A stretch of DNA of 32,000 nt from Desulfocapsa sulfexigens DSM 10523 (GCF_000341395.1 NC_020304.1:1500001-1532000); one strand, 5' to 3'; counted from the first letter of the stretch, positions 11,750-32,000 are shown. Notes: generated by a model from the sequence alone, not told the origin. Translations and numbers: made by a program.

Positions 11750-11753
11750 GATT

Positions 11754-11930: not shown

Positions 11931-12037
11931 TAATGATTTGCTGATGCTTACCATCCAAGCTCTATCCCATTTGTTGAAGATAAATGTGAATCTTTCTTTG
12001 ACTATTGGGATTTTCTTTATGAAAAAGGTGAAAGTTT

Positions 12038-12766
12038 ATGCAGAGCCATGATGAAATTGAAGAGCAGAAAAACTCTATCTATCTGTGTGCTCCCGTTAAT
12101 GCACTGGTTGAGGGTATCTTTGAAGAAAACATTCATCTTGCAGAAGTACTTAGGCATGGTGATTTCGGACTTGGTACTTTTGATGATCTGGATGGAGAGA
12201 TGCTTATCCTCGACGGACATTGCTACCAGATAAACTCCGCCGGGAAAGTAACTGAAGTTGATGGACAAGTGTTGACCCCCTTCGCTTCGGTGACTTTTTA
12301 TAAACCGGAGAACTTTTATGAGATCAACAAGGAAACTCCATTTGATGATTTTTTAAAACAGCTCAATAGCTTTATGCCATCACCGAATCTGTTCTATGCC
12401 GTGCGTATTGAGGGTGAGTTTTCTCACATCAAAGCACGCTCCGTTCCAAAGCAGGCTAATTATCATCCGCTTACAGATATAGTTAATGAGCAGATTGTCT
12501 TTGATTTTGATAATATCTGCGGAACCGTGGCAGGCTTTTTTACACCAGAGTTCATGTCATCATTGAGCGTCCATGGACTGCATCTGCACTTTCTCTCAGA
12601 GGACTTGCAGCACGGGGGACATATCCTTGGATGTGTGCCGCGTAAAGTGAAGATTGGGGTCCAGACAATTAACCGTTTAGAGCTTACATTGCCGATGACA
12701 AAGGATTACATGGGGTGTGATTTTCACAGGGATATTAACAGGGATCTGGATAAGGTTGAAAAGTAA
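12038..12766 (+). CDS. budA: Alpha-acetolactate decarboxylase
   Basis: 242 aa. The N-terminal pattern SIYLCAPVNALVEGIFE...GDFGLGTFDDLDGEMLILDG and the HGLHLHFLS metal-binding His motif are characteristic of AlsD/BudA. Confidence 0.85.
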   Translation: MQSHDEIEEQKNSIYLCAPVNALVEGIFEENIHLAEVLRHGDFGLGTFDDLDGEMLILDGHCYQINSAGKVTEVDGQVLTPFASVTFYKPENFYEINKETPFDDFLKQLNSFMPSPNLFYAVRIEGEFSHIKARSVPKQANYHPLTDIVNEQIVFDFDNICGTVAGFFTPEFMSSLSVHGLHLHFLSEDLQHGGHILGCVPRKVKIGVQTINRLELTLPMTKDYMGCDFHRDINRDLDKVEK

Positions 12767-12916
12767 GTGTGGAATTCCTGTAACAAGATAGATTGATTTT
12801 TGTGTACTTACCAATATAGGAACATTTTTGTTACTCCTTACAGTGTTTGGGAGCTGCTCGAGAGTGTGAAATACATTGGAAATGCTAATTTCTAAGTTGA
12901 GATAAAATCAGTTATC

Positions 12917-13690
12917 ATGGAAATACTTTGGTTCAAAATCATTTCGTTGCTGGTCATTTTTGCTGCAGGCTTGTTCGGTGGACTTGCACCGACAAAAATA
13001 AGCCTCACTCCCCAGGGAAAACGAAAACTTACATTGGGGAATGCCTTTTCCGGTGGAGTTTTTCTGGGCGCGGGATTACTGCACATGCTCCCTGATGCAC
13101 GTGAAAACTTCACTGCTTTTGCAGGCGACGTTGCCTATCCCTATGTCGCTCTCATCTGTGGCGGAGGATTTCTCCTGGTGATGCTTCTGGAAAAAGCTGT
13201 TCTTGGTGGTAGCGAGGACATTGGTGCGATGTCAAAAGGACGTTCCGTCTATCCTTATTTGTTGTGCGTTATCCTTTCTGTCCATTCAATTATTGTGGGA
13301 ACATCTTTAGGGTTGGAGGCCAGTCTGGTTGCTTCAGTAGGTATATTAGTGGCGATTCTCGCCCATAAATGGGCTGCGGCTTTTGCGTTAGGTGTCAGCC
13401 TGAGGGAAAATGGTTTCTCATTGTCACTTCATGTCCGACTTATCTGCTTTTTTGCGCTGATGGCTCCTTTGGGCGTGGTTCTCGGAACAATTTTCTCGGC
13501 CCTGTTTTCAGGAAAAGCGGCACTCCTGTTTGAAGCTGTCTTTGATGCTTTAGCAGCAGGGACTTTTCTCTATGTTGCCTGCGCCGATGTTATGGAAGAA
13601 GTCTTTAGAAAATCTGGGGATAACTGGAGAAAAGTCATTCTGATTATATGTGGCTTTTTTCTCATGGCACTGATAGCAATTTGGACATGA
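12917..13690 (+). CDS. ZIP-family divalent metal transporter
   Basis: 257 aa, about 8 TM helices, a variable central loop, and conserved His/Ala-rich helices (LHMLPDA, ILAHKWAAAFALG) typical of ZIP/ZupT-like permeases. Confidence 0.7.
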   Translation: MEILWFKIISLLVIFAAGLFGGLAPTKISLTPQGKRKLTLGNAFSGGVFLGAGLLHMLPDARENFTAFAGDVAYPYVALICGGGFLLVMLLEKAVLGGSEDIGAMSKGRSVYPYLLCVILSVHSIIVGTSLGLEASLVASVGILVAILAHKWAAAFALGVSLRENGFSLSLHVRLICFFALMAPLGVVLGTIFSALFSGKAALLFEAVFDALAAGTFLYVACADVMEEVFRKSGDNWRKVILIICGFFLMALIAIWT

Positions 13691-13796
13691 GCTGAGAAAG
13701 GGTGTTTATTGCGTCGCCCGTGTGATCGGTTATATGTTGTGTCTTAATGATTCGCTGATCGCTGCTGTTAATAATAACAGTGATTCAGTGTTCAAT

Positions 13797-13837
13797 AAAA
13801 AAAACCTCCAGGCTATCGATGAGATACCCTGAAGGTT
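13797..13837 (-). terminator. Rho-independent terminator of cassette A
   Basis: On the minus-strand RNA, AACCUUCAGG - 15-nt loop - CCUGGAGGUU forms a 10-bp stem with one G-U pair. U8 follows immediately. Confidence 0.8.
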
Positions 13838-13878
13838 CTAATGCGGGACAACATCCCAAAGAATTGTTTACTTTTTTC

Positions 13879-14178
13879 CTACTTTGAAGCTGTAACCTTT
13901 GCAGGGGCCTTGTTTACATATTTAAAGAATACGGGGAAGGCGACAAAGAAGGCTACACAGAGCAGGTATTCAATACCTTTGATATGAGTGTAGTAGTCAA
14001 CCAGAGTATGCAGAGGCTTTACCATTCCTATTGCCACCATATACTGTCCGGCAAGCTCACTTACTGACCAACCAACCGATGAAAGAGCACTGGTAAGGGC
14101 TGCGCCAACCCAGAGACACATGATTGAACCGGCTGCGAGAAGTATTCTTGATCCTGTTTTTGATGTATTTTGTTTCAT
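13879..14178 (-). CDS. Small membrane protein (99 aa, about 3 TM), family unknown
   Basis: SD AAGGA lies upstream. There are hydrophobic segments ILLAAGSIMCLWVGAALTSAL and YLLCVAFFVAFPVFF. It is second in a two-gene unit bounded by a sigma54-type promoter and a terminator. The copy at 19205-19504 encodes an identical protein. Confidence 0.7.
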   Translation of the reverse strand: MKQNTSKTGSRILLAAGSIMCLWVGAALTSALSSVGWSVSELAGQYMVAIGMVKPLHTLVDYYTHIKGIEYLLCVAFFVAFPVFFKYVNKAPAKVTASK

Positions 14179-14221
14179 GGTAGTGTCCTTATCTGTATAT
14201 GTTAATTTTAGAAAGAGTGTA

Positions 14222-14416
14222 TCAGCCGATAACTGCGGTCAGGTATCCTTTAACAACATTCAAATGTCCCATGCTTATCATTGCGCTTGCAAGACAGGCA
14301 AATCCCCAGATTCCAACAAGGGCAGCCATGGTCATTCCAGCACCAAGTGCAAATGAAGAAGTTTCGTATCCAGCTTTAACTTGAGTAGCAGTTGTGGTTT
14401 GAGTGTTTGTAGTCAT
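14222..14416 (-). CDS. Small membrane protein (64 aa, Thr-rich N-terminus, Gly/Ala-rich TM segment), family unknown
   Basis: Strong SD GGAGG lies 7 nt upstream of the ATG. It contains FALGAGMTMAALVGIWGFACLASAMI. The partner copy at 19548-19742 differs by one residue, His51 versus Pro51. Confidence 0.7.
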   Translation of the reverse strand: MTTNTQTTTATQVKAGYETSSFALGAGMTMAALVGIWGFACLASAMISMGHLNVVKGYLTAVIG

Positions 14417-14474
14417 GGTGTCCTCCGTATGGGTTTGATCTAGCTAAGTTTTTCTTTTCTTTGCCCTCTATGTA

Positions 14475-14489
14475 GCAGCAACCATGCCA
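14475..14489 (-). promoter_or_regulatory. Sigma54-type (-24/-12) promoter of cassette A
   Basis: The minus strand reads TGGCAT-GGTTG-CTGC against consensus TGGCAC-N5-TTGC. The invariant GG and GC have correct spacing. It lies about 60-70 nt upstream of the ATG at 14416. Confidence 0.6.
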
Positions 14490-14781
14490 GTTTTTGTTTT
14501 TCTTGCTGTGCTTTCACGAAAAACCAGGTAACACATTGGTACAACTCTGTATTTATGGAGAATGCTGTTGGAGTTTTCTTGCGACACATATGTGCCCTGG
14601 CAGTGTGGCAAAACTCGGAACTGTAGTTTTAGGAAGAGAATGTGTGGCTTGTGTTCTACGGAAGTGTTGCAGGTCTTGCAGATAGGTGTGGAATCAGAGA
14701 ATAGAAGAAGTAAGCACTGGCAAGCCCAATAACAGTTGCCTCCCCTTTGTTCAGCTTTGCCCAGAGCCCCGCAAGTTCTGT

Positions 14782-15010: not shown

Positions 15011-16057
15011 ATGCTATTTAAGGTCTTTCCCAGAGATCAGTTGGAGATTCTCTATGACATTTTGGCAGGCCATCATTTGGTTGGGCCACAAATCATAGGG
15101 ACAGACCGGAATGGGCAAGAGTTATTCGCCTTTGATTATATCCACAGTTTTACAGAACTTAGAATCGACTTCACCTCCACCGTTCATTCCTTGAAATCTT
15201 TTGTCCTTCCTCCCCGGGAAAATCTTAGTTCCTTTGCCCTGGCGAACAATGACTGGGAGAAAAATGTTGATTTGGGCATATACAAGCCTCATGTTTTTTT
15301 CGGCCTGCACCCCTGTGATATAAATGCTTTGAACAAACTGGACAAGGTTTTAACGGGTCCTGTTTATCCTGACCCTTTTTACACCGGAAAGCGGAAAAAC
15401 ATGTTCATTATAGGAGTCAACTGTATTCCGCAACCCTGGTGTTTTTGTAAATCCATGGGCACAGATACTGTGCTTTCCGGTTTTGATATGTTCCTCACCG
15501 ATTTGGGCGATAAATACTTTGTCGAGATCCAGTCAGCCACAGCTTATGATATCCTTATGGAGCTACCCATTACCGAGCCCACCGATGAGGATCATCGCAG
15601 ATTCGTTCAGTTAATGGATGAGCGAAACAGTAAATTCACCTGTCAGGTGGATAACTCCGACCTGACCAAGATCCTTGACTTGGAATTCCAGTCCCCGGTC
15701 TGGCAGGAGTGGGGAAAACGATGTATGTCCTGTGGTACCTGCGCAAATGTATGCCCTACCTGCTACTGCTATGGAGTAACGGAGCATGTTGACCTCGATT
15801 TGAAAAGTGCCACCAAACAGAAACAACTTTACTCTTGTAATCTTATAGATTTTGCCATGGTCTCTGGGGGCCACAACTTCAGACCTGATAGTGCCTCCCG
15901 CCTCAAATACCGTTATTACCACAAGCACCGCGGATTCCAGGAGGCATACGAAGAAGCGCTCTGCGTAGGCTGTGGTCGCTGTGGCCAGGCGTGTCTTGCT
16001 GGAATTACGGTGCCGGAAGTTATCGACAGTGTTCGCCGACAGGAGGTTCCTAAATGA
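15011..16057 (+). CDS. Group-3b-type NiFe hydrogenase beta subunit (4Fe-4S cluster protein)
   Basis: 348 aa. It has the Cys motifs CMSCGTCANVCPTCYC and CVGCGRCGQAC. It is first in a beta-gamma-delta-alpha gene order like the Pyrococcus-type sulfhydrogenase. Confidence 0.75.
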   Translation: MLFKVFPRDQLEILYDILAGHHLVGPQIIGTDRNGQELFAFDYIHSFTELRIDFTSTVHSLKSFVLPPRENLSSFALANNDWEKNVDLGIYKPHVFFGLHPCDINALNKLDKVLTGPVYPDPFYTGKRKNMFIIGVNCIPQPWCFCKSMGTDTVLSGFDMFLTDLGDKYFVEIQSATAYDILMELPITEPTDEDHRRFVQLMDERNSKFTCQVDNSDLTKILDLEFQSPVWQEWGKRCMSCGTCANVCPTCYCYGVTEHVDLDLKSATKQKQLYSCNLIDFAMVSGGHNFRPDSASRLKYRYYHKHRGFQEAYEEALCVGCGRCGQACLAGITVPEVIDSVRRQEVPK

Positions 16058-16956
16058 ACAAGCTTGATTTTGTCGATGTCCTGCCTGCAAGACAGATTTC
16101 TACACGAAAATCAGACCTATCCAGTTTTGAATATAGCTATAGGGCGGAAATCACCAATGTCTATGGTTTGACCAACACTGAAAAACTGTATCAGATAAGG
16201 ATAGTCGATTCCGATCAACGCCATCAGTTTACCTTCAAACCCGGACAATTTGTGATGCTTGAATTGCCTGGCATTGGAGAAGGCCCCTTTTCTATTTCTT
16301 CATCCCCAACCCGCCATGGTGATCTGGAGTTGTGTATTCGGGCTGTAGGCAATTTGACTAACTTTCTCAGCAGAGTACCCCGGGGCACGCTCGTCGGCAT
16401 TAGCGGACCATTTGGCACCAGTTTCCCGGTTGAAGACATGGAAAACAGCGACCTGATCCTTATTGCCGGAGGCCTTGGGATTGTTCCTCTGCGTGCTCCA
16501 CTCTTTTCTATACTTGAAAATCGCAGTCGCTATAAGCAGATAGATATTATCTACGGTGCTCGTAATCCATCCGAACTTCTTTTCACCTATCAGTATCAGA
16601 TGTGGCGGCAGTTTGACATAAATCTGGAAATTATTGTCGACCAGGCCGACGAAAAGTGGCAAGGGCCTGTTGGTCTAATCACCGAAATTCTAAAACATCG
16701 ACTTGAAGCCGCCGGAAATAACCTGTCTAGCAACACCTATGCAATTGTTTGCGGACCACCTGTAATGTTCCATTTTGTTTGCGATATGCTGATCAACGCC
16801 CAGTTACCCATGCAAAAGATCTTTGTCTCTCTGGAACGGCGGATGCATTGCGGGCGCGGAAAATGCTGCCGATGTAACATCGGTGCGACCTATACCTGTC
16901 TCAGCGGACCGGTCTTTGATTACTGGTCGGTATTGAATATGAAGGAGGCCATCTAG
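16054..16956 (+). CDS. Hydrogenase gamma subunit, FAD/NAD(P)-binding oxidoreductase with a C-terminal 2Fe-2S Cys cluster
   Basis: 300 aa. ATGA overlap with the upstream gene. It has a ferredoxin-NADP-reductase-like pattern (GQFVMLELPG, GPFSISS, LIAGGLGIVPL, VCGPPVM) and the C-terminal motif CGRGKCCRCN...C. Confidence 0.8.
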   Translation: MNKLDFVDVLPARQISTRKSDLSSFEYSYRAEITNVYGLTNTEKLYQIRIVDSDQRHQFTFKPGQFVMLELPGIGEGPFSISSSPTRHGDLELCIRAVGNLTNFLSRVPRGTLVGISGPFGTSFPVEDMENSDLILIAGGLGIVPLRAPLFSILENRSRYKQIDIIYGARNPSELLFTYQYQMWRQFDINLEIIVDQADEKWQGPVGLITEILKHRLEAAGNNLSSNTYAIVCGPPVMFHFVCDMLINAQLPMQKIFVSLERRMHCGRGKCCRCNIGATYTCLSGPVFDYWSVLNMKEAI

Positions 16957-16963
16957 GGACACC

Positions 16964-17746
16964 ATGGAGAAAAGTAAAACGTATCTGGGAGTGGAAATAA
17001 AACGACCCAGGACCGCCTTTTTTGAGTTGTCATCCTGTGAGGGCTGCCAGTTACAGATTCTCAATAAAGAGGCCAGCCTCCTGAATTTTCTTGATCTTCT
17101 TGAGATTGTCAATTTCCGCGAAGCGATGTCCAATGGGAGCGATGATTACGAGATAGCTTTTGTGGAGGGCAGTGTAACCAGAGCCGATGAAGAAGAGAGA
17201 CTTCTGAAGATCCGGAAACAGGCAACAACTCTTGTAGCTCTCGGATCCTGTGCCTGCTTTGGCGGAGTGAACCAACTGAAAAATCGTTTTCATGACCTGG
17301 AGTGGGTAAAAAATGAGGTCTATGGGGGCCATCCCATAGAGACTCAGGAGGTAAGACCTCTGTCGGACTTTGTTATAGTTGATCTCTCAATATACGGCTG
17401 TCCAATCAAAAAAGAAGAAGTGGAAGAGATCGTCACTAATCTGGTGCTTGGTAAATCAATTGACCATCCACGCTATCCCGTCTGCATGGAATGTACGGCA
17501 AATGGCAACATCTGTCTCTTCAACCTGGGTGAACCATGCCTTGGGCCAGTAACCAGGGCTGGCTGTGATGCCTGGTGCCCAAATAACCGCATGGGTTGCT
17601 GGGGGTGCCGTGGACCTTCCGATGAGGCCAATTTCAGCCAGCTTCAGGAGATCATGGACAGCCACAACATCCCCAGGCAGGCCATGCTTGATCGACTCGA
17701 ATGTTTTGGTGGTTTCAGCAGTGCAATCAGGGAAATGGAAAAATAA
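16964..17746 (+). CDS. NiFe hydrogenase small (delta) subunit
   Basis: 260 aa. It has NuoB-like Cys motifs (SSCEGCQ, GSCACFGG) and a Cys-rich C-terminal region (CMECTANGNICLFNLGEPCLGPVTRAGCDAWCP...CWGCRGP). Confidence 0.85.
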   Translation: MEKSKTYLGVEIKRPRTAFFELSSCEGCQLQILNKEASLLNFLDLLEIVNFREAMSNGSDDYEIAFVEGSVTRADEEERLLKIRKQATTLVALGSCACFGGVNQLKNRFHDLEWVKNEVYGGHPIETQEVRPLSDFVIVDLSIYGCPIKKEEVEEIVTNLVLGKSIDHPRYPVCMECTANGNICLFNLGEPCLGPVTRAGCDAWCPNNRMGCWGCRGPSDEANFSQLQEIMDSHNIPRQAMLDRLECFGGFSSAIREMEK

Positions 17747-17757
17747 ACGAGGCGATC

Positions 17758-19038
17758 ATGGGTGAATCAATAAGCTGCGATATCAATATCAACCATCTGA
17801 CCAGAGTCGAGGGGCACGGTAACATCCGGATTCGCATTAAAAACGGGAAGGTGGAAAATGCAAGTTGGGATGTGGTGGAGACCCCACGCTTTTTTGAGGC
17901 CATTCTGGTGGGAAAACATTGGGAGAATGCGCCTATCCTTTGTGGGCGTATCTGCGGGATATGCTCCATCGGCCACACACTGGCATCCATAAGGGCTGTT
18001 GAAAATGCCTTTGCCATGGTTCCCAGTCTGCAGACTCAAAGACTCCGGCTACTGCTCAAGCATATGGAGACGTTACAAAGTCATATCCTCCACCTCTACT
18101 TCCTGGTAGCTCCTGACTTTCTTGGCACAGACAGTGTGCTCGAACTTATAAAACCTCATGGTGATGAAGTACAACGGGCGGCCAGGCTTAAGTTGCTGGC
18201 CAATGACGGTGGTGACTTGATAGGTGGCCGCAGACTCCATCCAACCAGAACCGTTGTGGGTGGCTTTACCATGCTACCCGATCGCATAAAACTGGCAACC
18301 CTCAGGCAACGTCTCCATGCTGCACTGGCCGACCTCAACAAGACAGCAGAGCTCTTTGGCTCCTTTGCCATCCCAGATTTTACCCGAGAGACCGAGTTTG
18401 TTTCCCTGAAAAGCGATGGCAATTACCCTTTTATCGGTGGACAACTGGTCTCCAGTGACGGAGTGCTCAGAGAGGAAGAGGAGTACCTGACCATGAGTAA
18501 TGAATATATGGTCAGTCATTCCACTTCTAAATGGAGCAAACTCTCAAGACCAAGCCTGGCAGTGGGTGCTCTGGCCAGGATAAATAACAACTTTGCCAGC
18601 CTTCACCCTCATGCTCAGGATATTGCCAATAATTTAGGCCTCCACCCGGTCAGTCACAACCCATTTATGAACAATGTTGCACAGCTTGTGGAATGTGTTC
18701 ATGTTGTTCAGGATTCAATTTCACTTATTGACGAGTTGCTGGGGAGTGAGTGGCAGGAGCCTCGCCAAACTGTCACACCGAGGGCAGGTGCGGGAACTGG
18801 AGCCGTGGAAGTTCCCCGGGGAATTCTCTATCACTGGTATCAGTTTGACAAGGATGGTCGAATCACCAGGGCTGATTGCGTCATCCCCACCAGTCAGAAT
18901 AACGCCAATATTCACTACGATATCATTGCTCTTGCGCAGAAACTTGCCGCCCAGGGTAAGGACGATCAGGAAATTCGTTTGCTGGCCGAGATGCTTGTCC
19001 GATCCTATGATCCCTGCATTTCCTGCTCGGTTCATTAA
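17758..19038 (+). CDS. NiFe hydrogenase large (alpha) subunit
   Basis: ATG at 17758 has GAGG about 6 nt upstream. The track start at 17701 overlaps the small-subunit gene. The N-terminal Ni-binding motif is RICGICSIGH (RxCGxCxxxH) and the C-terminal motif is DPCISCSVH (DPCxxCxxH), followed directly by the stop. Confidence 0.9.
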   Translation: MGESISCDININHLTRVEGHGNIRIRIKNGKVENASWDVVETPRFFEAILVGKHWENAPILCGRICGICSIGHTLASIRAVENAFAMVPSLQTQRLRLLLKHMETLQSHILHLYFLVAPDFLGTDSVLELIKPHGDEVQRAARLKLLANDGGDLIGGRRLHPTRTVVGGFTMLPDRIKLATLRQRLHAALADLNKTAELFGSFAIPDFTRETEFVSLKSDGNYPFIGGQLVSSDGVLREEEEYLTMSNEYMVSHSTSKWSKLSRPSLAVGALARINNNFASLHPHAQDIANNLGLHPVSHNPFMNNVAQLVECVHVVQDSISLIDELLGSEWQEPRQTVTPRAGAGTGAVEVPRGILYHWYQFDKDGRITRADCVIPTSQNNANIHYDIIALAQKLAAQGKDDQEIRLLAEMLVRSYDPCISCSVH

Positions 19039-19122
19039 TAAATTACGGTTGTGTATCCAATGCTGGCATAATTCAGACACCTGTCGATGGCGATTGTAAA
19101 TAACAGTGATTCAGTGTTCAAT

Positions 19123-19163
19123 AAAAAAAACCTCCAGGCTATCGATGAGATACCCTGAAGGTT
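19123..19163 (-). terminator. Rho-independent terminator of cassette B
   Basis: Same stem and U8 tract as at 13797-13837. Confidence 0.8.
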
Positions 19164-19204
19164 CTTATGCGGGACAACATCCCAAAGAATTGTTTACTTT
19201 TTTC

Positions 19205-19504
19205 CTACTTTGAAGCTGTAACCTTTGCAGGGGCCTTGTTTACATATTTAAAGAATACGGGGAAGGCGACAAAGAAGGCCACACAGAGCAGGTATTCAAT
19301 ACCTTTGATATGAGTGTAGTAGTCAACCAGAGTATGCAGAGGCTTTACCATTCCTATTGCCACCATATACTGTCCGGCAAGCTCACTTACTGACCAACCA
19401 ACCGATGAAAGAGCACTGGTAAGGGCTGCGCCAACCCAGAGACACATGATTGAACCGGCTGCGAGAAGTATTCTTGATCCTGTTTTTGATGTATTTTGTT
19501 TCAT
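19205..19504 (-). CDS. Small membrane protein (99 aa), duplicate of 13879-14178
   Basis: The protein is identical to copy A. There is one synonymous difference, at 19280. Confidence 0.7.
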   Translation of the reverse strand: MKQNTSKTGSRILLAAGSIMCLWVGAALTSALSSVGWSVSELAGQYMVAIGMVKPLHTLVDYYTHIKGIEYLLCVAFFVAFPVFFKYVNKAPAKVTASK

Positions 19505-19547
19505 GGTAGTGTCCTTATCTGTATATGTTAATTTTAGAAAGAGTGTA

Positions 19548-19742
19548 TCAGCCGATAACTGCGGTCAGGTATCCTTTAACAACATTCAAAGGTCCCATGC
19601 TTATCATTGCGCTTGCAAGACAGGCAAATCCCCAGATTCCAACAAGGGCAGCCATGGTCATTCCAGCACCAAGTGCAAATGAAGAAGTTTCGTATCCAGC
19701 TTTAACTTGAGTAGCAGTTGTGGTTTGAGTGTTTGTAGTCAT
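19548..19742 (-). CDS. Small membrane protein (64 aa), duplicate of 14222-14416
   Basis: It is identical to copy A except Pro51 instead of His51 (19591). Confidence 0.7.
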   Translation of the reverse strand: MTTNTQTTTATQVKAGYETSSFALGAGMTMAALVGIWGFACLASAMISMGPLNVVKGYLTAVIG

Positions 19743-19800
19743 GGTGTCCTCCGTATGGGTTTGATCTAGCTAAGTTTTTCTTTTCTTTGCCCTCTATGTA

Positions 19801-19815
19801 GCAGCAACCATGCCA
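19801..19815 (-). promoter_or_regulatory. Sigma54-type promoter of cassette B
   Basis: Identical sequence to 14475-14489. Confidence 0.6.
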
Positions 19816-20149
19816 GTTTTTGTTTTTCTTGCTGTGCTTTTGTGGAAACAAGTGCAAAGTACTGGTATAACACTGTATTTGTGAGTGGCGTTGCTGGAAA
19901 TCTCTTGCGACACTTGTGTGTTCCGGTAGTGTGGTAAAACTCGGAACTGTAGTTTTGGGACGAGAATGTGTAGTTTAAATTCTACGGTTGTGTTGCAGGT
20001 CTTGCGGATAGGTGTGGCAACGAGAAGTAATTTGTTTATTTTATTGCATTACTGTTTTTTTTAGGAAATACATTTCAGTTATCAGATCTTCGATTAGAGA
20101 ATGATTTTGATCGTCTTGAAGAATCACCTTAAACAAGGAGAAAGAAAAA

Positions 20150-24107: not shown

Positions 24108-24674
24108 TCAGCTTTTAGGTAAATAATTTTTCATGATTTCATAAATAGCAGGTCGATTTTCCCGTATCTCATCCGCGCTCAAACCTTCCAGTGAATGAGG
24201 GTATTTAAGCCAGTCTGCGGTTTCGTGTACAGTATAATCCGGTGCCTTGCCTGTCTGATTACGAGATGGCTTGTAATAGGGTACGGCAATGCGGATATCT
24301 TCAGGAGTGTTTAAGCGTAATCTGCGTTGTAATTCATTGATAATGGCTTCAACCGAGCGGCCCGTGTCAAAGACATCGTCTACAATCAAGAGCCGATCGC
24401 TGTGTTGAAGGTTTTTTACCAGATAGTTGAGTCCAAACAGCTTTATTTCACGTGTTTTATTGTCAATCCCACTGTAGGAGGAGGTACGGATTGCGATATT
24501 GTCAGATACTATGCCGTGAAAAGCCAGAAACTCCTGAACGGCGATACCTATGGGGACCCCGCCACGCCATACGGCGATGATAAACGTGGGCCGAAAGCCA
24601 CTATCAAGGATCTGACGACCAAGCTTAAAGGAATCTTCCAGCAGACCCTGGGCGGTGAGGTAGACTTTATCCAT
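24108..24674 (-). CDS. Type-I phosphoribosyltransferase (purine PRTase-like)
   Basis: 188 aa, with the PRPP-binding motif LLIVDDVFDTGRS. Confidence 0.8.
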   Translation of the reverse strand: MDKVYLTAQGLLEDSFKLGRQILDSGFRPTFIIAVWRGGVPIGIAVQEFLAFHGIVSDNIAIRTSSYSGIDNKTREIKLFGLNYLVKNLQHSDRLLIVDDVFDTGRSVEAIINELQRRLRLNTPEDIRIAVPYYKPSRNQTGKAPDYTVHETADWLKYPHSLEGLSADEIRENRPAIYEIMKNYLPKS

Positions 24675-24834: not shown

Positions 24835-25407
24835 ATGAACAAAATTTTTCTTGATGAAGAAACCCTGATTCTCGATTCCTTCAAACTGGGAGTGCAGGTT
24901 TTTGAAAGCGGCTTTCGGCCCACGTTTATCGTGGGACTGTGGCGGGGAGGCAGTTCCGTTGCCATTTATGTTCAGGAATGTCTGCAGACGCTGGGGGTGG
25001 AGACAAATCATATCTCACTTCGTACATCCTATCGCGGCCAGCCCTCTTATCAGGAGGCGGTCGCAGCGGCTAATGCTGAGATAAGGGTTCACGGTACCCA
25101 GTATCTTCTTGAAAACCTCAACGCTGACGATGCGCTGCTGCTGGTAGACGATGTCTTCAGCACCGGTAAAAGTATAGAAGCAGTCATAAACCGGTTGAGC
25201 CGTCATCTGAAACGCAATATGCCCAGGGAGGTCAAGATTGCCACTCTCTGGGATAGACCTTCTTTCAGGGAATCTGAGATAGATCCGGATTTCTACCAGC
25301 ATCGAACGGAGGACTGGCTGGTTTTTCCTTACGAAATGAGTGGTCTCACAATGGATGAAATCCAGGAGCACAAACCTTTTCTTGTCCCATTCCTGCAGAA
25401 TGGTTGA
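24835..25407 (+). CDS. Type-I phosphoribosyltransferase paralogue, first gene of the kinase/cyclase operon
   Basis: 190 aa, with the PRPP motif LLLVDDVFSTGKS. It aligns with the divergent neighbour over its full length, roughly 35-45% identical by eye. Its stop, TGA at 25405-25407, overlaps the TTG at 25404 of the next ORF. Confidence 0.8.
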   Translation: MNKIFLDEETLILDSFKLGVQVFESGFRPTFIVGLWRGGSSVAIYVQECLQTLGVETNHISLRTSYRGQPSYQEAVAAANAEIRVHGTQYLLENLNADDALLLVDDVFSTGKSIEAVINRLSRHLKRNMPREVKIATLWDRPSFRESEIDPDFYQHRTEDWLVFPYEMSGLTMDEIQEHKPFLVPFLQNG

Positions 25408-26387
25408 ATAATTCAATGAATTATTGCGTCTATGGTCTGCTGCTTGAGAGTAATGTAGAGCTCTCCGGACTTCAATCTTGCAAGGCAGCAGGTGAGAAAA
25501 TTGATGTAACCGCTACAATGGGGGACTTTCCGGGCGAGATAGAACGGCTTTTCCACCACTCCATGCCGCAAAGGTATTATGCTGAACCGGGATATATAGA
25601 GGGTGATCCACCCCGTCTTGTTGTAAATACTCTGGCTGATGGCCAATATTATCATTTTTCCTATGCGGTTGGGGTACAGTTTGTTTGTGATAAACTGGCA
25701 ACGAGTGTATGGGGAAGGTGGCAGGATCCTTTGACCCTTATGGATGCTACCCTTTTTCTGGTGGGTCCGATTCTTGGCTTTATGCTGCGACTGCAGGGTG
25801 TTACATGTTTGCATGCAAGTGGGGTTGTTATAGAAGGACGAGCGCTGGCTATCACAGGGCCGTCGGGCAGTGGGAAATCTACCCTGGCTGCAGCATTTGC
25901 AGCGGCTGGATTTCCCATATTAAGTGATGATATCTTGCCGTTGCAGTTTGAACAGGGAAGCCCGCAGGCACTCCCGGGATATTCCCGTCTACGTCTTTAT
26001 CCAAGATCTTTTAAGGGCATCACTCAATTACCCGACGATTTACCCGCTCTTTCACCACACTGGAGTAAGTGCTATCTTGACGTTGGTTCCGCTCCCTATT
26101 CATTTCACCACCTTTCCATACCCCTGCACGTTGTTTATTTTCTGGATTGGAAGAAGAGTGACGCCGCTGTTTCCCAAATAATGCCCGTAAAACCAATTTC
26201 TGCTGTGCCTCTCCTGGCTGCAAACACCTATCGCAATGAGGTACTGGATTCTGACATGAGAAAAAAAGAATTTTTTTTCCTCAGCCAGCTTGCTTCAAAA
26301 GTTACTGTAAGAACAATTCGGATGCGTGATGATCTCCATGGGATATCAAATCTTGTTGATGTGATCCGCAAGGATTTTAAGGGCTAG
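25404..26387 (+). CDS. HPr-kinase-like P-loop protein (lasso-peptide kinase-like)
   Basis: 327 aa. CLHASGVVIEGRALAITGPSGSGKSTLAAAFAAAGFPILSDD is the HPrK/P-type Walker A region. The start is either TTG 25404 or ATG 25416. Confidence 0.75.
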   Translation: MNNSMNYCVYGLLLESNVELSGLQSCKAAGEKIDVTATMGDFPGEIERLFHHSMPQRYYAEPGYIEGDPPRLVVNTLADGQYYHFSYAVGVQFVCDKLATSVWGRWQDPLTLMDATLFLVGPILGFMLRLQGVTCLHASGVVIEGRALAITGPSGSGKSTLAAAFAAAGFPILSDDILPLQFEQGSPQALPGYSRLRLYPRSFKGITQLPDDLPALSPHWSKCYLDVGSAPYSFHHLSIPLHVVYFLDWKKSDAAVSQIMPVKPISAVPLLAANTYRNEVLDSDMRKKEFFFLSQLASKVTVRTIRMRDDLHGISNLVDVIRKDFKG

Positions 26388-26394
26388 AAACTCT

Positions 26395-28233
26395 ATGAGT
26401 GGTTTTGTTGCCATTATTAACACGAACGGTGCGCCCGTTGATTGCGAAATCTTGAAATGGTTAACCGATGCTCTGCATTTTCGAGGAACAGACAGGCAGA
26501 AAGTTTGGTCGGAGGGACATGTAGGGTTCGGTCATGCGCTGTATGGCACAACATTTGAATCACACTATGAGTTTCAGCCTTCCAGTCTTGATGGTGAGTT
26601 CTGGATTACTGGAACTGCGCGCATTGATGCTCGTTCCGACTTGCTCAATAAGCTTGGCCTGCAATCGGAACTCAGGCTGGATCAGATTCCGGATTCTGAC
26701 CTCATCCTTTATGCATATCGTGCCTGGGGAGAAAGATGTCTTGATTATCTTCTTGGGGATTTTTCCTTTGTAATCTGGGACAAAGGGCGAAAAAAAGTCT
26801 TTTGTGCCCGTGACCAGTTTGGTATGCGTCAGCTGTATTATTCCCAAATCAGAGAATCCCTGATAATCAGCAACAGTCTCTACTGCATACAGCAACACCC
26901 CGCTGTTTCCAAAACCCTTGATGAAGGGGCTATGGCAGGATTTCTTCTCTTTGGTGACCACACCTGGCTGGATAAAGAGCTGACCGTTTATGCTGATGTC
27001 AAATCTCTCTTGCCAGCGCACTCTCTTGTCCTCAGCAGTGACGGATTTATGGTCAGGAAAAAATATTGGGATATTCCTGCCAATATACCACTACTTCGTT
27101 ATCGAAACGAAAATGATTACAGAGAGCATTTTCGTGAAGTTTTTAAAAAGGCTGTTTGTGATAGAATTCGCACCGATCGTGTGGTCCTTGCAATGAGCGG
27201 TGGTATGGACTCATCCTCTATTGCAGCCATGCTCTGTGAAATTCAGAATGAGGATAACCACCCCTTCCATATCAGCCCCGTTACTGTTGTTTACAATACT
27301 GTTCATCCGTGTCGGGAACATTATTTTGCTGGTCTTGTAGCTAGAAGACTTGGGTTGTCAATTCATTATATTGATGGTGATCTGTATCCTTTCCTTGGTG
27401 AGGCTATCAATACAACACGCCCTCTTGAAATTGACCAACCGTCACTCTGGATGGATATTATGCGTCAGGAGAGTCTTCTCGGGCGGGTTGTGCTAACAGG
27501 TGCTGCGGCTGATAATCTTCTCAGCTATCCGGCCAGTCTGGCTTCCTTAAGAGCAGCAGGTAATCCATTTAAAATTGTATATGATAGTATTCAATTGCGG
27601 AAACGATATGGGAAATTTCCGGGTCTGGGAACCGGTTTGCTCAACAAATTTCGAAATATCTGGCCCATAAATGGGAGCGGCGGATCTGCCCCTTATCCCT
27701 ATCCATCGTGGATAAAGAGTGAATTTGAAGAGAAAATGTGCTTGAAGGATGTTTGGGCGGAAAGATGGGCTTCTTCCGGGCGGCTGTTTGAGCTTCGTTC
27801 CAGGGCGTCTCTGCTCCATGAGTCGTTGTTGACCATGGATTGGTGTAGCGATGATAGTGTAATGAAGAACGAATTTCCACCGCCTGAAAAGCGAGATCCC
27901 TATCTCGATATACGAATGGTTGAGTTTGTACTCTCTCTTCCAGCAATTCCCTGGCTTTTCAATAAACATGTTTTGCGTTGTTCCATGAAAGGGAAATTGC
28001 CGGGCGAAGTGATAGAACGTCCCAAAACCCCTTTAGGCATGTTACAGCAGTCCTTGTTGGAATTACCAGGGACACAGTGGGTGGATGAATGGAAAGCTGT
28101 TCCAGGGCTCAAACCGTACATTGAAAGATCCAAAATACCCAGACTGGCGGGAGGCGTTCAGGGAGCAGTCTCTTCTTACATAAATCTACGACCGCTTATG
28201 TTGAACAGATGGTTGGGATGTTTGTCTATCTGA
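26395..28233 (+). CDS. Asparagine-synthetase-B-like protein, probable lasso cyclase (macrolactam synthetase)
   Basis: 612 aa, with the PP-loop ATP pyrophosphatase motif LAMSGGMDSSS. The N-terminus is M-S-G rather than M-C-G, so the glutaminase nucleophile Cys is missing, as in lasso cyclases. A kinase gene and a precursor-like gene lie next to it. Confidence 0.75.
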   Translation: MSGFVAIINTNGAPVDCEILKWLTDALHFRGTDRQKVWSEGHVGFGHALYGTTFESHYEFQPSSLDGEFWITGTARIDARSDLLNKLGLQSELRLDQIPDSDLILYAYRAWGERCLDYLLGDFSFVIWDKGRKKVFCARDQFGMRQLYYSQIRESLIISNSLYCIQQHPAVSKTLDEGAMAGFLLFGDHTWLDKELTVYADVKSLLPAHSLVLSSDGFMVRKKYWDIPANIPLLRYRNENDYREHFREVFKKAVCDRIRTDRVVLAMSGGMDSSSIAAMLCEIQNEDNHPFHISPVTVVYNTVHPCREHYFAGLVARRLGLSIHYIDGDLYPFLGEAINTTRPLEIDQPSLWMDIMRQESLLGRVVLTGAAADNLLSYPASLASLRAAGNPFKIVYDSIQLRKRYGKFPGLGTGLLNKFRNIWPINGSGGSAPYPYPSWIKSEFEEKMCLKDVWAERWASSGRLFELRSRASLLHESLLTMDWCSDDSVMKNEFPPPEKRDPYLDIRMVEFVLSLPAIPWLFNKHVLRCSMKGKLPGEVIERPKTPLGMLQQSLLELPGTQWVDEWKAVPGLKPYIERSKIPRLAGGVQGAVSSYINLRPLMLNRWLGCLSI

Positions 28234-28257
28234 TTGATAGCAAAAAGTGGTGACAGC

Positions 28258-28410
28258 TCAGGATGCGTGGTATGGATGTTCGCCATTGTCTCTTGGCGGA
28301 CCACCTTTGTTCATTCGGGTAAGCTCTTTTACTGAGCCGAAGACTTTCAGTTTGGGGCAGTGATAGTTCTTTCTGGTTGTCTTCTCTTGTTTTTTAGGTG
28401 TTGGCTTCAA
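28258..28410 (-). CDS. Candidate lasso-type RiPP precursor peptide (50 aa: 32-aa leader plus 18-aa core MNKGGPPRDNGEHPYHAS)
   Basis: TTG at 28410 has GGGGA 7 nt upstream. The leader YHCPKLKVFGSVKELTR fits YxxPxLx3Gx5Tx exactly, with Thr at -2. The core has Asp at position 9 and a C-terminal Ser. A near-consensus promoter lies inside the upstream part of the 72-aa track ORF. Confidence 0.6.
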   Translation of the reverse strand: MKPTPKKQEKTTRKNYHCPKLKVFGSVKELTRMNKGGPPRDNGEHPYHAS

Positions 28411-28462
28411 GTTTATTTCCCCATATGTGCCAGTTGGTATTCCTTCCCGTCTTCCCTTAACA

Positions 28463-28490
28463 TATATATTAAACAAATTTGTTTTGTCAA
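28463..28490 (-). promoter_or_regulatory. Near-consensus sigma70 promoter of the precursor gene, with a palindromic spacer
   Basis: The minus strand reads TTGACA (28490-28485), N16, TATATA (28468-28463). The spacer contains the perfect 14-bp palindrome AAACAAATTTGTTT (28471-28484). Confidence 0.6.
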
Positions 28491-28718
28491 TATAGAAGAG
28501 TACAGTTCATTCTATCCGTCCCTTACAGCATATAACAGCAAAAAGGTGACAAAAGAATTGGACTTTTAATAAAAAGAACAGTACCCGTTATTGGTATTGT
28601 TTACACTGTTTTGTTATAGATAACTGATTCGTGCTATCGTCTTCTGCCTAGAAGAAGATGGTTGAATCGGCTTCAATGCAATACCTGCGCATTGCCAGAG
28701 AATCACCAGCTTTAAGGA

Positions 28719-29066
28719 GTGTTCAACAAGTATATGTCAGAAGACAATAAACATGATGTTGCGGCTGCAGTCACCGATATACAGCTTCTTCTTGCTGAGA
28801 AACGAACCTCTCTTGCTCTGATGCGTACAGGGATTGCAGTCCTGGCTCTTCCACTGTCAGTCTTGAGCTTACTGATTGCCACATCGAAGTATTATGAAGC
28901 TATAGATGTACTCTCTTTTCTTATACCATTGGCCATATTACTTTCTTTTCTGGTTGGCTTAGGGCTGTATCTTATCATTCGCTCCATTCGCCGTATGCAT
29001 CGTAATGATGCTTTGATTCATAGAATAAAGTTGAAGTATGAAGAGATTGCAGAGTATGTGGATTGA
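28719..29066 (+). CDS. DUF202 (YidH-like) small membrane protein
   Basis: 115 aa. LLAEKRTSLALMRTGIAVLAL matches the LAxERTxLAWxRT-type DUF202 signature and is followed by 2 more TM helices. The start is GTG 28719 or ATG 28734. Confidence 0.65.
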   Translation: MFNKYMSEDNKHDVAAAVTDIQLLLAEKRTSLALMRTGIAVLALPLSVLSLLIATSKYYEAIDVLSFLIPLAILLSFLVGLGLYLIIRSIRRMHRNDALIHRIKLKYEEIAEYVD

Positions 29067-29380
29067 TGATATTTCGTTCATTTTTTTTCATTCTGCTGCT
29101 GTCTCTGCTGGTTGTCCCTAAGCTCTATTCTGATGAGCTGGGTAACTGGCCAGAGGAAGTCAGCGTTTCGTCTGGTACAGTTACGATCTATCAACCTCAG
29201 GTTGAATCACTAACAGGCAACCCAGAAATCAAACCGTCACAGCAGACCAAGCTATGGCATGCATGCATTCTGGTGGTGGCGGCGGACGACGTCATTAATC
29301 GTCTTAAAAAAACTGATTACCATCGAAACTCAGTTTTGCAACCCGGAGCTGTCCCGTGTCGATTATATGGGACACTATAA
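29066..29380 (+). CDS. Short secreted ORF whose 3' end runs into MITE copy 3
   Basis: ATG 29066 overlaps the upstream TGA, and a signal-peptide-like sequence FFFILLLSLLVVPKLYS follows. From codon 83 onward the reading frame is MITE sequence. Coding status is uncertain. Confidence 0.35.
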   Translation: MIFRSFFFILLLSLLVVPKLYSDELGNWPEEVSVSSGTVTIYQPQVESLTGNPEIKPSQQTKLWHACILVVAADDVINRLKKTDYHRNSVLQPGAVPCRLYGTL

Positions 29381-29489
29381 ACCCATCCCTGGGGGCTCTG
29401 CTGCGGCCGTCCAGGCCGCAGATGCTCATATAATCAACACGAAACCACTGCTCCTCAGGCGGGTAGGCTGAGGAGCAGTGGTAATCAGG
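29312..29489 (+). mobile_element. MITE copy 3 (178 bp)
   Basis: Flanking 8-mers TTAAAAAA (29304-29311) and TTAAAAAA (29490-29497) are identical. The terminal repeats are (A)CTGATTACCA / TGGTAATCAGG. Confidence 0.9.
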
Positions 29490-29839
29490 TTAAAAAATGC
29501 AGTCTGGGGTGGGAATAGTGAAATCCGGGCTGTCTGATACGTCAAATTTATCTGATTTTTTACGATTCTATTTATTACTCTTATTGGCTTTACATACTTT
29601 CTGCTATGCGGTGCTTTCAGCACTTCTTGAGATATCAGGGTCCCCTGCCGGTGTTTGCCACAAAAAAATCTCCTTCAAACTTGCTTTATGGATTGGATTT
29701 TTCCTGCCGGAATCCGGCAAAGCATCCGATAATACTGTTTGTATATTGCTTGCTCAGATGATACGCTGACCCCTGTAAAACGAGAAAAAACCGTTTTCGA
29801 AATAAGAGCGGCGTAATTTTTTTTAATTCCCTTGTAATC

Positions 29840-30196
29840 ATGAAAATAGAAAGCAGAACAAATGGTTCGGTCCTTATTGCAACCATACTTGAAGAACGTT
29901 TTGATGCCACCTGTGCCCCCGACTTTATTGTTGTTATGAAGGAGTGGATAGCTGCCGGTAATATACAGATAATCCTCGATTTTGGCCATGTTGACTTTAT
30001 GGACAGTACGGCCCTTGGTGTTGTAATTAAAAGTTTTAAATGGTTGCGACAGGCCGATAACGGAAATGGAGAACTGGGCCTTTGCAGTGTCAATGACAAG
30101 ATAATGAGCCTCCTGCAGTTGACTCGAATGGATAGAGTTTTTCTCGTTTTTCCCGATAGTCAGGAAGCAATAAAAACAATAACTGAATCCAGATGA
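29840..30196 (+). CDS. STAS-domain anti-sigma-factor antagonist (SpoIIAA/RsbV-like)
   Basis: 118 aa, with DFGHVDFMDSTALGVVI containing the conserved phosphorylatable Ser context (DSxxLG). Confidence 0.85.
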   Translation: MKIESRTNGSVLIATILEERFDATCAPDFIVVMKEWIAAGNIQIILDFGHVDFMDSTALGVVIKSFKWLRQADNGNGELGLCSVNDKIMSLLQLTRMDRVFLVFPDSQEAIKTITESR

Positions 30197-30636
30197 GTTC
30201 TCCTGAAAGTCACTATTTACAACTGATTATTCCAAGCGAAAAGGAGGACTCTCGCCTTATTGGCAGGGCCGTGTATTCATTTTGTCTTCATATGGGATTT
30301 GATGAGGTTCAAAGTTATCAGATTGAGTTGGCAACGGTTGAGGTTACACATAATATTGTTGGTCACGCCTATGATAATTGTCCCGACTGTGTGATCGAGC
30401 TTCATGCGCAGGGATTGGCTGACAGGATTATTTTCACCATAATTGATAACGGTAAATCTGCAGACGCTTTTGCGTTCCCTGCCTGTTGTCCCGTTGATCC
30501 GGGGAGTGCGATTGACAGGTTGCCGGAGTCTTCCATGGGACTCTATATTATAGCTTCTGTTATGGATACCGTGGAGTACGAGGTGTATGAAAATTCTAAT
30601 ATACTGACCATGATGAAGTATCTGCCCAAATCATGA
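30193..30636 (+). CDS. RsbW/SpoIIAB-like anti-sigma factor serine kinase (HATPase_c)
   Basis: 147 aa. ATGA overlap with the STAS gene. It has an N-box-like EVTHNIVGHAY, then IIDNGKS and SMGLYII, which are G-box-like. Confidence 0.75.
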   Translation: MSSPESHYLQLIIPSEKEDSRLIGRAVYSFCLHMGFDEVQSYQIELATVEVTHNIVGHAYDNCPDCVIELHAQGLADRIIFTIIDNGKSADAFAFPACCPVDPGSAIDRLPESSMGLYIIASVMDTVEYEVYENSNILTMMKYLPKS

Positions 30637-32000
30637 ACGTTAACGGGTTCTTTTCTCAAAAAAACTGGTTAGCTCCTGTTGTTATTGGTTGTCTGCTGCT
30701 GACCACTCCTCTATTCCTCTCAGGAGTTATCACCCGCCTTACCACCAAAGAGCAGTTTTTTTTCGCCTGGGGACTGATCTTTCTGGTTCTTGTTTTACGG
30801 AAGGTGGCCCATCATTTTTCTGTCTTTTTTGGTATCCTTATTTCCTTCTGCACTCTGTTTCTGCTGAGCCGATATTTCTTTTTTCGTCTGAGTTCGACCC
30901 TGCTTTACACCTCAACTCTGGAGTTTTTCTTTATTCTGGTTCTTTTTGCGGCGGAAATCTACGGTATGTTTATTCAGGTGATGGGGATGATCATCAATGT
31001 AATGCCTCTGTATCGACCGGCAGTGCAATCCATTGAACTTAGTGATCCCGATCTCCCCGTTGTCGATGTCCTTATTCCCACCTACAATGAGCCGGAACAG
31101 ATGGTTGCCATTACCGCCAGTGCCTGTACGCTTTTTGATTATCCTCGGGAAAAACTCAACATTTATATTCTCGATGATGGAGGAACAACTCAGAAACGTA
31201 ATGCTGCTGACCCGAAAAGTGCCGCCGCTGCCCTCGTTCGTCACGAAACCCTCAAGGTGCTGGCTGAATATCTTGAAGTGAATTACCTGACCAGAGAGGA
31301 AAATATATCTGCAAAGGCAGGAAATATTAATGCCGCGCTCTACACAAGCGACGATGGTCAGCAACATCCCAGTGGAGATCTAGTCCTGGTTCTGGACTGT
31401 GATCACGTGCCCACAAGGGATTTTCTTCAGAATACGGTTGGCTACTTTTTGAAAGATCCGAAGCTGTTTCTGGTACAGACTCCGCATTTCTTTATTAACC
31501 CTGACCCGGTGGAAAAGAATCTCGATACCTTCAATAAGATTCCGGGAGATAATGTGATGTTTTACGGGAAGGTACTTCCCGGACTTGATTTATGGAATGC
31601 GGCGTTTTTTTGCGGTTCTGCCGCTGTGCTCCGCAGAAGCTGTCTCGATGAAGTTGGAGGTATCGTAGGGGAAACCATCACCGAAGATGCGGAAACTGCT
31701 TTGACCATGCATGGTCGGGGGTACAATTCTGTCTATGTTGGCAAACCAATGGTTTGCGGACTCTGTCCAGAAACTTTTGAGGACTTTATAATTCAGCGAA
31801 ACAGATGGGCTCAGGGGATGGCTCAGATTTTGTTGCTTAAGAATCCTCTTTTTGCCCGTGGACTCAGTCTGATTCAGCGACTTTGTTATCTGAACTCTGC
31901 CGGATTCTGGTTTTTCAGTTTTTCCAGGCTGATGTTTATGCTGGCCCCGTTTTTTTATCTTTATGGAGATCTGCAGATATATCATGCAACCCTGTTACAG
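30633..32000 (+). CDS. bcsA: Cellulose synthase catalytic subunit-like family-2 glycosyltransferase (3' end outside the window)
   Basis: Not in the ORF track because no stop is reached. I translated it by hand from ATG 30633, which has an ATGA overlap with the kinase gene. It has N-terminal TM helices, then VDVLIPTYNEP, YILDDGG, LVLDCDH, VQTPHFFINPDPVEKNL, FFCGSAAVLRR, TEDAETAL and QRNRWAQG (QxxRW). Confidence 0.8.
   Translation, partial: MNVNGFFSQKNWLAPVVIGCLLLTTPLFLSGVITRLTTKEQFFFAWGLIFLVLVLRKVAHHFSVFFGILISFCTLFLLSRYFFFRLSSTLLYTSTLEFFFILVLFAAEIYGMFIQVMGMIINVMPLYRPAVQSIELSDPDLPVVDVLIPTYNEPEQMVAITASACTLFDYPREKLNIYILDDGGTTQKRNAADPKSAAAALVRHETLKVLAEYLEVNYLTREENISAKAGNINAALYTSDDGQQHPSGDLVLVLDCDHVPTRDFLQNTVGYFLKDPKLFLVQTPHFFINPDPVEKNLDTFNKIPGDNVMFYGKVLPGLDLWNAAFFCGSAAVLRRSCLDEVGGIVGETITEDAETALTMHGRGYNSVYVGKPMVCGLCPETFEDFIIQRNRWAQGMAQILLLKNPLFARGLSLIQRLCYLNSAGFWFFSFSRLMFMLAPFFYLYGDLQIYHATLLQ

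Follow-up and report, generated by a model that had tools for sequence, protein, structure and literature searches.

In textbooks and in mining tools such as RODEO and antiSMASH, lasso peptide biosynthesis is defined by a B protein, or by its split form B1/B2, paired with a cyclase (C). Within the leader of the precursor (A), the YxxPxL motif serves the binding of B1, the recognition element (RRE) of these peptides, which are made by ribosomes and modified after translation (RiPPs), and the Thr residue at position −2 serves cleavage by the peptidase B2. Together with an Asp at core position 9 and a terminal Ser, the leader motif characterizes paeninodin-type precursors. Clusters of this kind also encode a kinase (K), and a His-Lys-Asp-Asp motif is essential in the lasso kinases PadeK and ThcoK (PMC9266682). 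In the pseudomycoidin system, deletion of psmB1/B2 leaves production intact in E. coli and B. subtilis, PsmK (poly)phosphorylates the terminal Ser, and the unmodified peptide is reported to be unthreaded (PMC6993621). Here, we analyzed a 32,000-nt stretch of Desulfocapsa sulfexigens DSM 10523 (NC_020304.1:1500001-1532000; referred to as the window, from whose first letter coordinates are counted), which carries a kinase gene, a cyclase gene and a convergent precursor gene at 25404–28410. Comparison with related sequences shows this K-C-A cassette to be a reduced remnant of the kinase-associated clusters of the paeninodin/pseudomycoidin/Bsf type.

The gene family and its chemistry are already known. 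As far as the searched literature shows, a natural, selection-maintained three-gene K-C-A form without B1, B2 and exporter has not been described, and the same search returned no link between Desulfocapsa and lasso peptides. An earlier interpretation of the DNA made without database searches (the sequence-only reading) had proposed a lasso-type RiPP locus at this position, and its four open reading frames (ORFs) are present at the same coordinates in our ORF table.

Kinase, cyclase and precursor of the cassette

The kinase gene (25404–26387, + strand) encodes a protein of 327 residues from a TTG start, or of 323 residues from the ATG at 25416 used by NCBI. The product is 100% identical to the D. 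sulfexigens hypothetical protein UWK_01350. Family scans gave weak matches to HprK_rel_A/B and Hpr_kinase_C, and the model of HprK-related kinase A (TIGR04352) matched the P-loop region only, with 38.7 bits against a curated cut-off of 200. In alignments of 34–37 homologues, His137, Lys158, Asp175 and Asp176 are invariant, and these residues correspond to the His-Lys-Asp-Asp signature of lasso kinases. An AlphaFold (AF2) model of K, with a pLDDT of 94 and a pTM of 0.91, retrieved phosphoenolpyruvate carboxykinases (PEPCK) and HprK/P in a Foldseek search. Judged by homology, motif and model, K is a lasso-precursor kinase with a predicted PEPCK/HprK fold, in agreement with its previous description as an HPr-kinase-like P-loop protein.

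The cyclase gene (26395–28233, + strand) follows after a gap of 7 nt and encodes a lasso macrolactam synthetase of the Asn-synthetase-like type with 612 residues. The protein begins with MSGF, in which the second residue is Ser and no Cys follows the Met, and the ATP PP-loop SGGMDS is intact at residue 268. Its best family is the NCBIfam lasso cyclase NF033535 with 294 bits, below the curated cut-off of 525, compared with 162 bits for asparagine synthase TIGR01536, whose cut-off is 267. The full-length identities to cyclases of complete clusters are 49.5% (locus L168), 42.7% (L005) and 53.2% (L090), which identify C as an ortholog of bona fide lasso cyclases. A role as a glutamine-hydrolyzing AsnB was considered and rejected on account of the missing Cys nucleophile and the TIGR01536 score below its cut-off. 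The MSGF start thus bears out the AsnB-like protein without an N-terminal Cys that had been proposed, and the scores place C with the lasso model rather than with the asparagine synthetases, the grouping that the sequence-only reading had named as evidence against itself.

The precursor gene (28258–28410, − strand) is convergent with C, with 24 nt between the two stops. Its 50 codons, starting from a TTG at 28410, encode MKPTPKKQEKTTRKNYHCPKLKVFGSVKELTRMNKGGPPRDNGEHPYHAS, which is composed of the 32-residue leader MKPTPKKQEKTTRKNYHCPKLKVFGSVKELTR, with YHCPKLKVFGSVKELTR as the motif-bearing part, and the 18-residue core MNKGGPPRDNGEHPYHAS, opening with MNKGGPPRD. The leader contains the full lasso motif YxxPxLx3Gx5Tx, and the core has an Asp at position 9 and a Ser at its C-terminus. 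The protein matches the NCBIfam model lasso_cyano NF033528 with 24 bits, below the cut-off of 33. In many genomes, orthologous K-C pairs are likewise faced by a convergent small ORF homologous to A. A comparison with about 100 homologous precursors revealed that the leader motif, an Asp at core position 8–10 and the C-terminal Ser are kept, the terminal Ser being conserved in the relatives with the K-C order. In the ortholog from the metagenome contig L086, the motif region of the leader is identical and the core differs at three sites. Because of the leader motif, the Asp9 and terminal Ser, the NF033528 match and the conserved convergent position, A is evidently not a chance ORF. The ring is predicted to join Met1 and Asp9, with Ser18 as the predicted phospho-acceptor. 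These findings, together with the family assignment of C and the signature of K, uphold both the convergent 50-codon lasso precursor and the lasso-type locus of the sequence-only reading.

A putative promoter and ribosome-binding site of A (28411–28495, − strand) were read by eye: TTGACA at about 28490–28485 is followed after 16 nt by TATATA, and GGGGA lies 7 nt before the TTG. This promoter was not reported by a stricter consensus scan, and a promoter/terminator scan of the window gave nothing above shuffled expectation.

Reduction of a larger kinase-associated cluster

Three components expected of such a cluster, namely B2 (PF13471), B1 (PF05402) and a dedicated ATP-binding cassette (ABC) exporter, are missing at the locus. 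Pfam scans of all sizeable ORFs in the window detected no PqqD, Transglut_core3 or ABC exporter, and custom B1/B2 hidden Markov models (HMMs) run against six-frame fragments of the window yielded zero matches, even at E<1, a result that also disposes of hidden B1/B2 remnants. The view is extended downstream by L170, a contig of a metagenome-assembled genome (MAG) with about 93% nucleotide identity to the window. The further 10 kb of L170 contain only STAS/anti-sigma genes and the bcs cellulose operon. Taken together, the window and L170 reveal no B1/B2 between −25 kb and about +14 kb relative to the cassette, and neither the window nor these 10 kb contain an ABC transporter. The earlier remark that B1, B2 and exporter are missing from the window therefore holds, and extends to this downstream region.

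The search for B proteins beyond the locus was carried out twice in a database of 5.8 billion proteins. The D. sulfexigens chromosome is absent among the best 120 of 194 matches to a group-specific B2 profile, and none of the 88 matches to a B1+B2 query from the sister-clade locus L166, which reach down to 37% identity, comes from D. sulfexigens. Both results speak against orthologous B1/B2 genes at another site of the genome. They stem from protein-database searches rather than a direct whole-genome scan, and since such searches require shared 5-residue words and one covers the best 120 of 194 matches, divergent B1/B2 proteins could be encoded elsewhere in the 4-Mb genome. A plasmid-borne B2 was also considered and rejected: a tblastn search of PLSDB returned Tistrella, Antarctobacter and Bacillus only, with no Desulfocapsa plasmid. 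Fusion of a B domain was rejected on protein length for both K (327 residues versus 324–326 in B-containing clusters) and C (612 versus 605–627). An RRE within K was likewise discarded, as its modelled N-terminal domain appears to be a β-rich PEPCK/HprK-type domain, not a winged-helix RRE. Stand-alone B1-B2 loci as a sign of split clusters were also dismissed, as every inspected B2 context adjoins K and/or C.

Loci around kinase homologues were collected from exact-protein look-ups, GTDB genomes and metagenomes, and annotated by iterated HMMs. A widespread architecture, present in Acidobacteriota, cyanobacteria and others, comprises B1, B2, C, A, K, a PRMT-like methyltransferase and NTP_transf_5. 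The architecture of the window, K followed by C with a convergent A, also occurs in a complete form in L168, where NTP_transf_5, an ABC exporter, PqqD, Transglut_core3, K, C, the convergent A and a PRMT-like gene are found together, and further complete examples are L005, L090 and L091. The comparison shows the ancestral layout of the lineage to be NTP_transf_5, ABC exporter, B1, B2, K, C, convergent A and PRMT-like, of which the Desulfocapsa copy retains K, C and A alone. In the relatives L001, L003, L007, L092 and L093, no B1/B2 was detected within the 4–10 kb of flank available on each side.

In the kinase tree, the B-less loci form two clades, one containing the window, L086 and L001 (85% bootstrap) and the other L003, L004, L006, L007, L092 and L093 (100% bootstrap). 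Both are placed among B-containing relatives, and the nodes between them are weak, with bootstrap values of 12–47%. On this sequence basis, at least one loss of B1/B2 is secure and a second is only suggested; the stronger claim of two independent losses was abandoned in view of the 12–47% values. The unique precursors are divided among loci with both B proteins (49), with B1 only (36), with B2 only (4) and with neither (15), the last counted where each flank spans at least 5 kb.

Reduced clusters also occur outside these clades. The Pyrinomonadaceae locus L015 contains PqqD, a short 487-residue cyclase, A, K, a PRMT-like gene, an ABC exporter and NTP_transf_5, and lacks Transglut_core3. Along with L015 (7668–14576 of a Pyrinomonadaceae MAG), about 35 similar loci keep B1 and lack B2, in the order B1, C, A, K, PRMT-like, ABC and NTP_transf_5, and their cyclases are shortened to 487–520 residues with a truncated GATase-like N-domain. 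An ABC exporter is present in L168, L015 and L172. Both B1 and B2 are lacking within 10 kb in the Acidoferrales locus L042. This locus (7964–13409 of a Candidatus Acidoferrum MAG) and L022, L059, L084, L118 and L161 contain C-A-K-PRMT-NT modules of the other, C-K-ordered architecture, with B1/B2 undetected within 10 kb; the Pfam check of these modules covered L042. A hybrid arrangement is seen in L166 (4442–10013), in which B1-B2-K is combined with two unknown genes, an unrelated lasso cyclase and a plus-strand precursor. Its K is 59% identical to that of the window, and its cyclase is 28% identical to C.

Kinase-type lasso clusters lie almost always within or beside exopolysaccharide or capsule loci (L003, L004, L005, L042, L168, L172 and L175), with Wzz, Wzy_C, Poly_export, BBP2_2 and glycosyltransferases as neighbors. 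The Desulfocapsa cassette is located about 2 kb upstream of STAS/anti-sigma genes and a bcsA-B-Z-C operon (29840–32000; 8717–17822 in L170).

Selection, proposed maturation and alternatives

Relative to L086, whose kinase is 94% identical to that of the window, the dN/dS ratios are 0.19 for K and 0.18 for C over roughly 940 codons, and those of the flanking genes range from 0.06 to 0.22. These ratios indicate purifying selection on K and C. L001, whose K and C share 58–61% identity with those of the window, also has full-length, undamaged copies of all three genes, pointing to long-term maintenance in the first clade without linked B genes.

Several observations weigh against a working, B-independent cassette. 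The dN/dS of the short A gene against L086 is 0.47, with the changes mainly in the core. In L170 the cassette has been deleted: the blastn alignment with the window ends at 25581 and resumes at 28567, leaving the first ~178 nt of the kinase gene. The deleted segment (25582–28566) comprises most of K and all of C and A with the promoter and marks the limits of a dispensable cassette, which is therefore not essential. Some B-less relatives in the second clade look decayed. The precursor of the Halieaceae-like L003 (10980–11117) has a core of 8 residues, TNTINDES, compared with 21 in its near relative L007, and probably represents a copy in decay; in L004 and L006 the cyclase is fragmented, possibly by long-read assembly errors. 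Finally, YxxPxL and Thr(−2) of the leader are kept in every B-less lineage, which argues for a B1/B2-like partner somewhere. Taken together, the comparative data are best read as those of a functional but dispensable cassette.

We favor, with a probability of about 0.4, a functional reduced cassette of the paeninodin/pseudomycoidin type in which the leader is removed by a non-dedicated protease. Following the characterized homologues, K would transfer phosphate from ATP to the C-terminal Ser18 side chain while the 50-residue precursor is still linear. Cleavage after Arg(−1) would next remove the 32-residue leader, through an activity that the cassette does not encode. Since B1 and B2 are gone, this step, the weakest in the scheme, is assigned to a non-dedicated protease, as occurs for pseudomycoidin in E. 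coli and B. subtilis. C would then adenylate the side chain of Asp9 and join it to the freed amine of Met1. This would yield a macrolactam ring of 9 residues carrying a phosphorylated tail of another 9, as either a threaded lasso or a branched-cyclic peptide, with predicted monoisotopic masses of 1944.86 Da after cyclization and 2024.83 Da with one phosphate. The [M+2H]2+ ions of these two forms are predicted at 973.44 and 1013.42, the linear core at 1962.88 Da and the phosphorylated 50-residue precursor at 5744.97 + 79.97 Da. In view of the missing exporter gene, the product may be retained by the cell or exit by another route.

That no B-less lineage has given up the RRE-binding motif or Thr(−2) would also fit a B1/B2 pair acting in trans, supplied by another RiPP cluster or encoded alone, with export likewise in trans. 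Purifying selection on K and C agrees with this explanation, as do the ability of BsfB1 to speed the kinase as well as the peptidase (PMC10368454) and the existence of loci such as L013 and L020, in which several cyclases and precursors are served by a single B1-B2 pair. We nevertheless consider it somewhat less probable than the favored reading, given that D. sulfexigens appears in 0 of the 88 B1+B2 matches and in none of the best 120 of 194 B2-profile matches, that the region between −25 kb and about +14 kb around the cassette contains no pair, and that inspected B2 homologues always adjoin K and/or C and never stand alone. A non-producing remnant heading for deletion, or a K and C kept for another substrate, would accommodate the clean deletion in L170, the truncated core of L003 and fragmented cyclases of L004 and L006, the absence of an exporter gene and the elevated dN/dS of the precursor. 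Such an outcome is unlikely: the dN/dS of about 0.18, measured over roughly 940 codons, is much lower than expected under neutrality, the three genes remain intact in a B-less clade at 58–61% protein identity, and the catalytic motifs, leader motif, Asp9 and terminal Ser are all kept. The protease could be dispensed with altogether if the 18-mer were translated directly from the core Met (ATG at 28311–28309) and cyclized by C. Met at core position 1 is indeed confined to B-less lineages (window/L086 and L092), with 0 cases among the 89 unique precursors of B-containing loci, and PsmC cyclizes a ribosomally made leaderless core (PMC6993621). This route is nonetheless highly improbable, because the Shine-Dalgarno-like AAAGAG located 9 nt upstream in the window is weak and has no counterpart in L092, position 1 is His, Thr, Ala or Gln in the other B-less loci, and the leader, which leaderless translation would not need, is conserved.

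The sequence-only reading had further placed a phosphoribosyltransferase (PRTase) in the pathway, on the idea that the co-transcribed enzyme uses phosphoribosyl pyrophosphate to modify the (phospho)peptide. Only adjacency speaks for this idea: the stop of the purine-PRTase-like gene (24835–25407, + strand) overlaps the TTG start of the kinase by 4 nt, an arrangement conserved in L086. The co-occurrence check proposed with that reading gave a different picture. Of the 166 K-containing sources covered by iterated HMM searches, two had PRTase homologues, namely the window and L086 (94% identical), and the other 164 had none beside K/C; distant K-C-A loci have unrelated upstream genes, such as PurL and CpsB. 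L170, with the order 6PGD, oxidoreductase, DedA, PRTase(−), PRTase(+) and DUF202, keeps both PRTases without K-C-A, indicating that the pair persists independently and that the cassette was lost by a simple deletion. The dN/dS of the PRTases against L086 is 0.08–0.09 (0.09 for the plus-strand copy), reflecting tighter constraint than on K and C. The plus-strand protein, with 190 residues, matches the Pfam family Pribosyltran with 43 bits, and its closest solved structure is the purine PRTase 1vdm; the enzymes thus resemble those of purine salvage. A second paralogue (24108–24674, − strand) lies divergently upstream and is 43% identical to the plus-strand copy. A faint StiP match of this minus-strand protein (E=0.05) was set aside, as it spans the PRTase fold only. 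Comparison of the loci therefore shows the two PRTase genes to be unrelated, purine-salvage-like neighbors outside the system, and the tailoring idea is, on synteny, effectively refuted. An Rfam scan detected no RNA families in the window, and hence no purine riboswitch ahead of the PRTases.

Genomic surroundings, implications and known systems

The remainder of the window contains several repeats. A direct repeat of about 930 bp with 94.9% identity (13773–14701 and 19099–20026) flanks a NiFe-hydrogenase-like operon (15011–19038), which L086 lacks between the corresponding flanks, suggesting that the operon was gained or lost via the repeat. A repeat of roughly 190 bp is present in three copies with 92–94% identity (7460–7650, 11747–11936 and 29310–29494), all intergenic or in disrupted regions, and may be a small mobile or repetitive element. 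The third copy is situated at the break of a gene of unknown function, which encodes 737 residues in L170 (6264–8477) and is also found in L086 (from 11992); in the window (29063–29625) it is truncated to an ORF of 105 residues. An IS110-family transposase gene (1672–2706, − strand) contains DEDD_Tnp_IS110 and Transposase_20, and the ORFs at 5779–7452 (557 residues) and 7666–8820 (384 residues) have no Pfam match at E<=0.001.

A broader proposal, which we advance tentatively, is that kinase-associated pathways work naturally without a dedicated peptidase or RRE, and that K-C-A is a self-sufficient minimal RiPP system relying on housekeeping proteolysis that has arisen repeatedly through loss of B2 or of B1 and B2, in Desulfocapsa, Halieaceae-like Gammaproteobacteria, Pyrinomonadaceae and Acidoferrales. 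If so, genome-mining rules that require a B protein would systematically miss K-C-A, and the data suggest that current surveys undercount the kinase-associated lasso family. Pseudomycoidin production without B1/B2 in heterologous hosts has been the single experimental exception and seemed an oddity; the natural K-C-A cassettes and the B1-only clusters of Pyrinomonadaceae would be its genomic counterpart. The repeated closeness to exopolysaccharide or cellulose loci is a hint of a physiological function tied to the cell envelope and not of antibiotic activity. The cassettes also offer small three-gene test systems for leader recognition by the cyclase and kinase, and would permit testing of whether phosphorylation replaces the steric locking of the lasso. 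For the PRTase, the comparison removes a false lead to a new RiPP tailoring enzyme.

Among the described systems, the pseudomycoidin cluster psmCAB1B2NDK of Bacillus pseudomycoides shares with the Desulfocapsa cassette an HprK-like kinase, an Asn-synthetase-like cyclase whose macrolactam, predicted in Desulfocapsa, joins residues 1 and 9, and a precursor ending in Ser. Experiments in E. coli and B. subtilis showed that K, C and A (plus D) are sufficient for pseudomycoidin (PMC6993621). Four genes retained in psm, namely those for B1, B2, the nucleotidyltransferase N and the exporter D, have been lost naturally from the Desulfocapsa cassette. The gene order also differs, with a convergent precursor gene in Desulfocapsa, as do the host phyla (Desulfobacterota versus Bacillota) and the ring, predicted as Met1-Asp9 here and Ala1-Glu9 in pseudomycoidin. 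Paeninodin from Paenibacillus dendritiformis resembles the predicted product in that the kinase PadeK bears the His-Lys-Asp-Asp motif and acts on the C-terminal Ser of the linear precursor, the 9-residue ring is closed on Asp9, and the leader carries YxxPxL; a split B1/B2 and an ABC exporter are needed and encoded there, in contrast to the Desulfocapsa cassette, which has none linked (Zhu et al. 2016, summarized in PMC9266682). The Bsf system of Bradymonas sediminis is a kinase-bearing lasso cluster from another former 'Deltaproteobacteria' lineage, in which the leader residue at −2 influences kinase action (PMC10368454). This residue is Ile in Bsf and Thr in Desulfocapsa, and BsfK phosphorylates the ring residue Ser3, unlike the C-terminal Ser predicted as acceptor here (PMC10368454). 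The B1/B2 pair, absent from the Desulfocapsa cassette, is present in Bsf and required for cleavage in vitro (PMC10368454). The complete clusters L168, L005 and L090, which come from marine and sediment relatives and are situated in exopolysaccharide loci, add B1, B2 and usually an ABC exporter, NTP_transf_5 and a PRMT-like gene. With these clusters the Desulfocapsa cassette shares the K-C order and the convergent A, kinases of 40–51% and cyclases of 43–53% identity, the same leader motif, an Asp at core position 8–10 and the terminal Ser.

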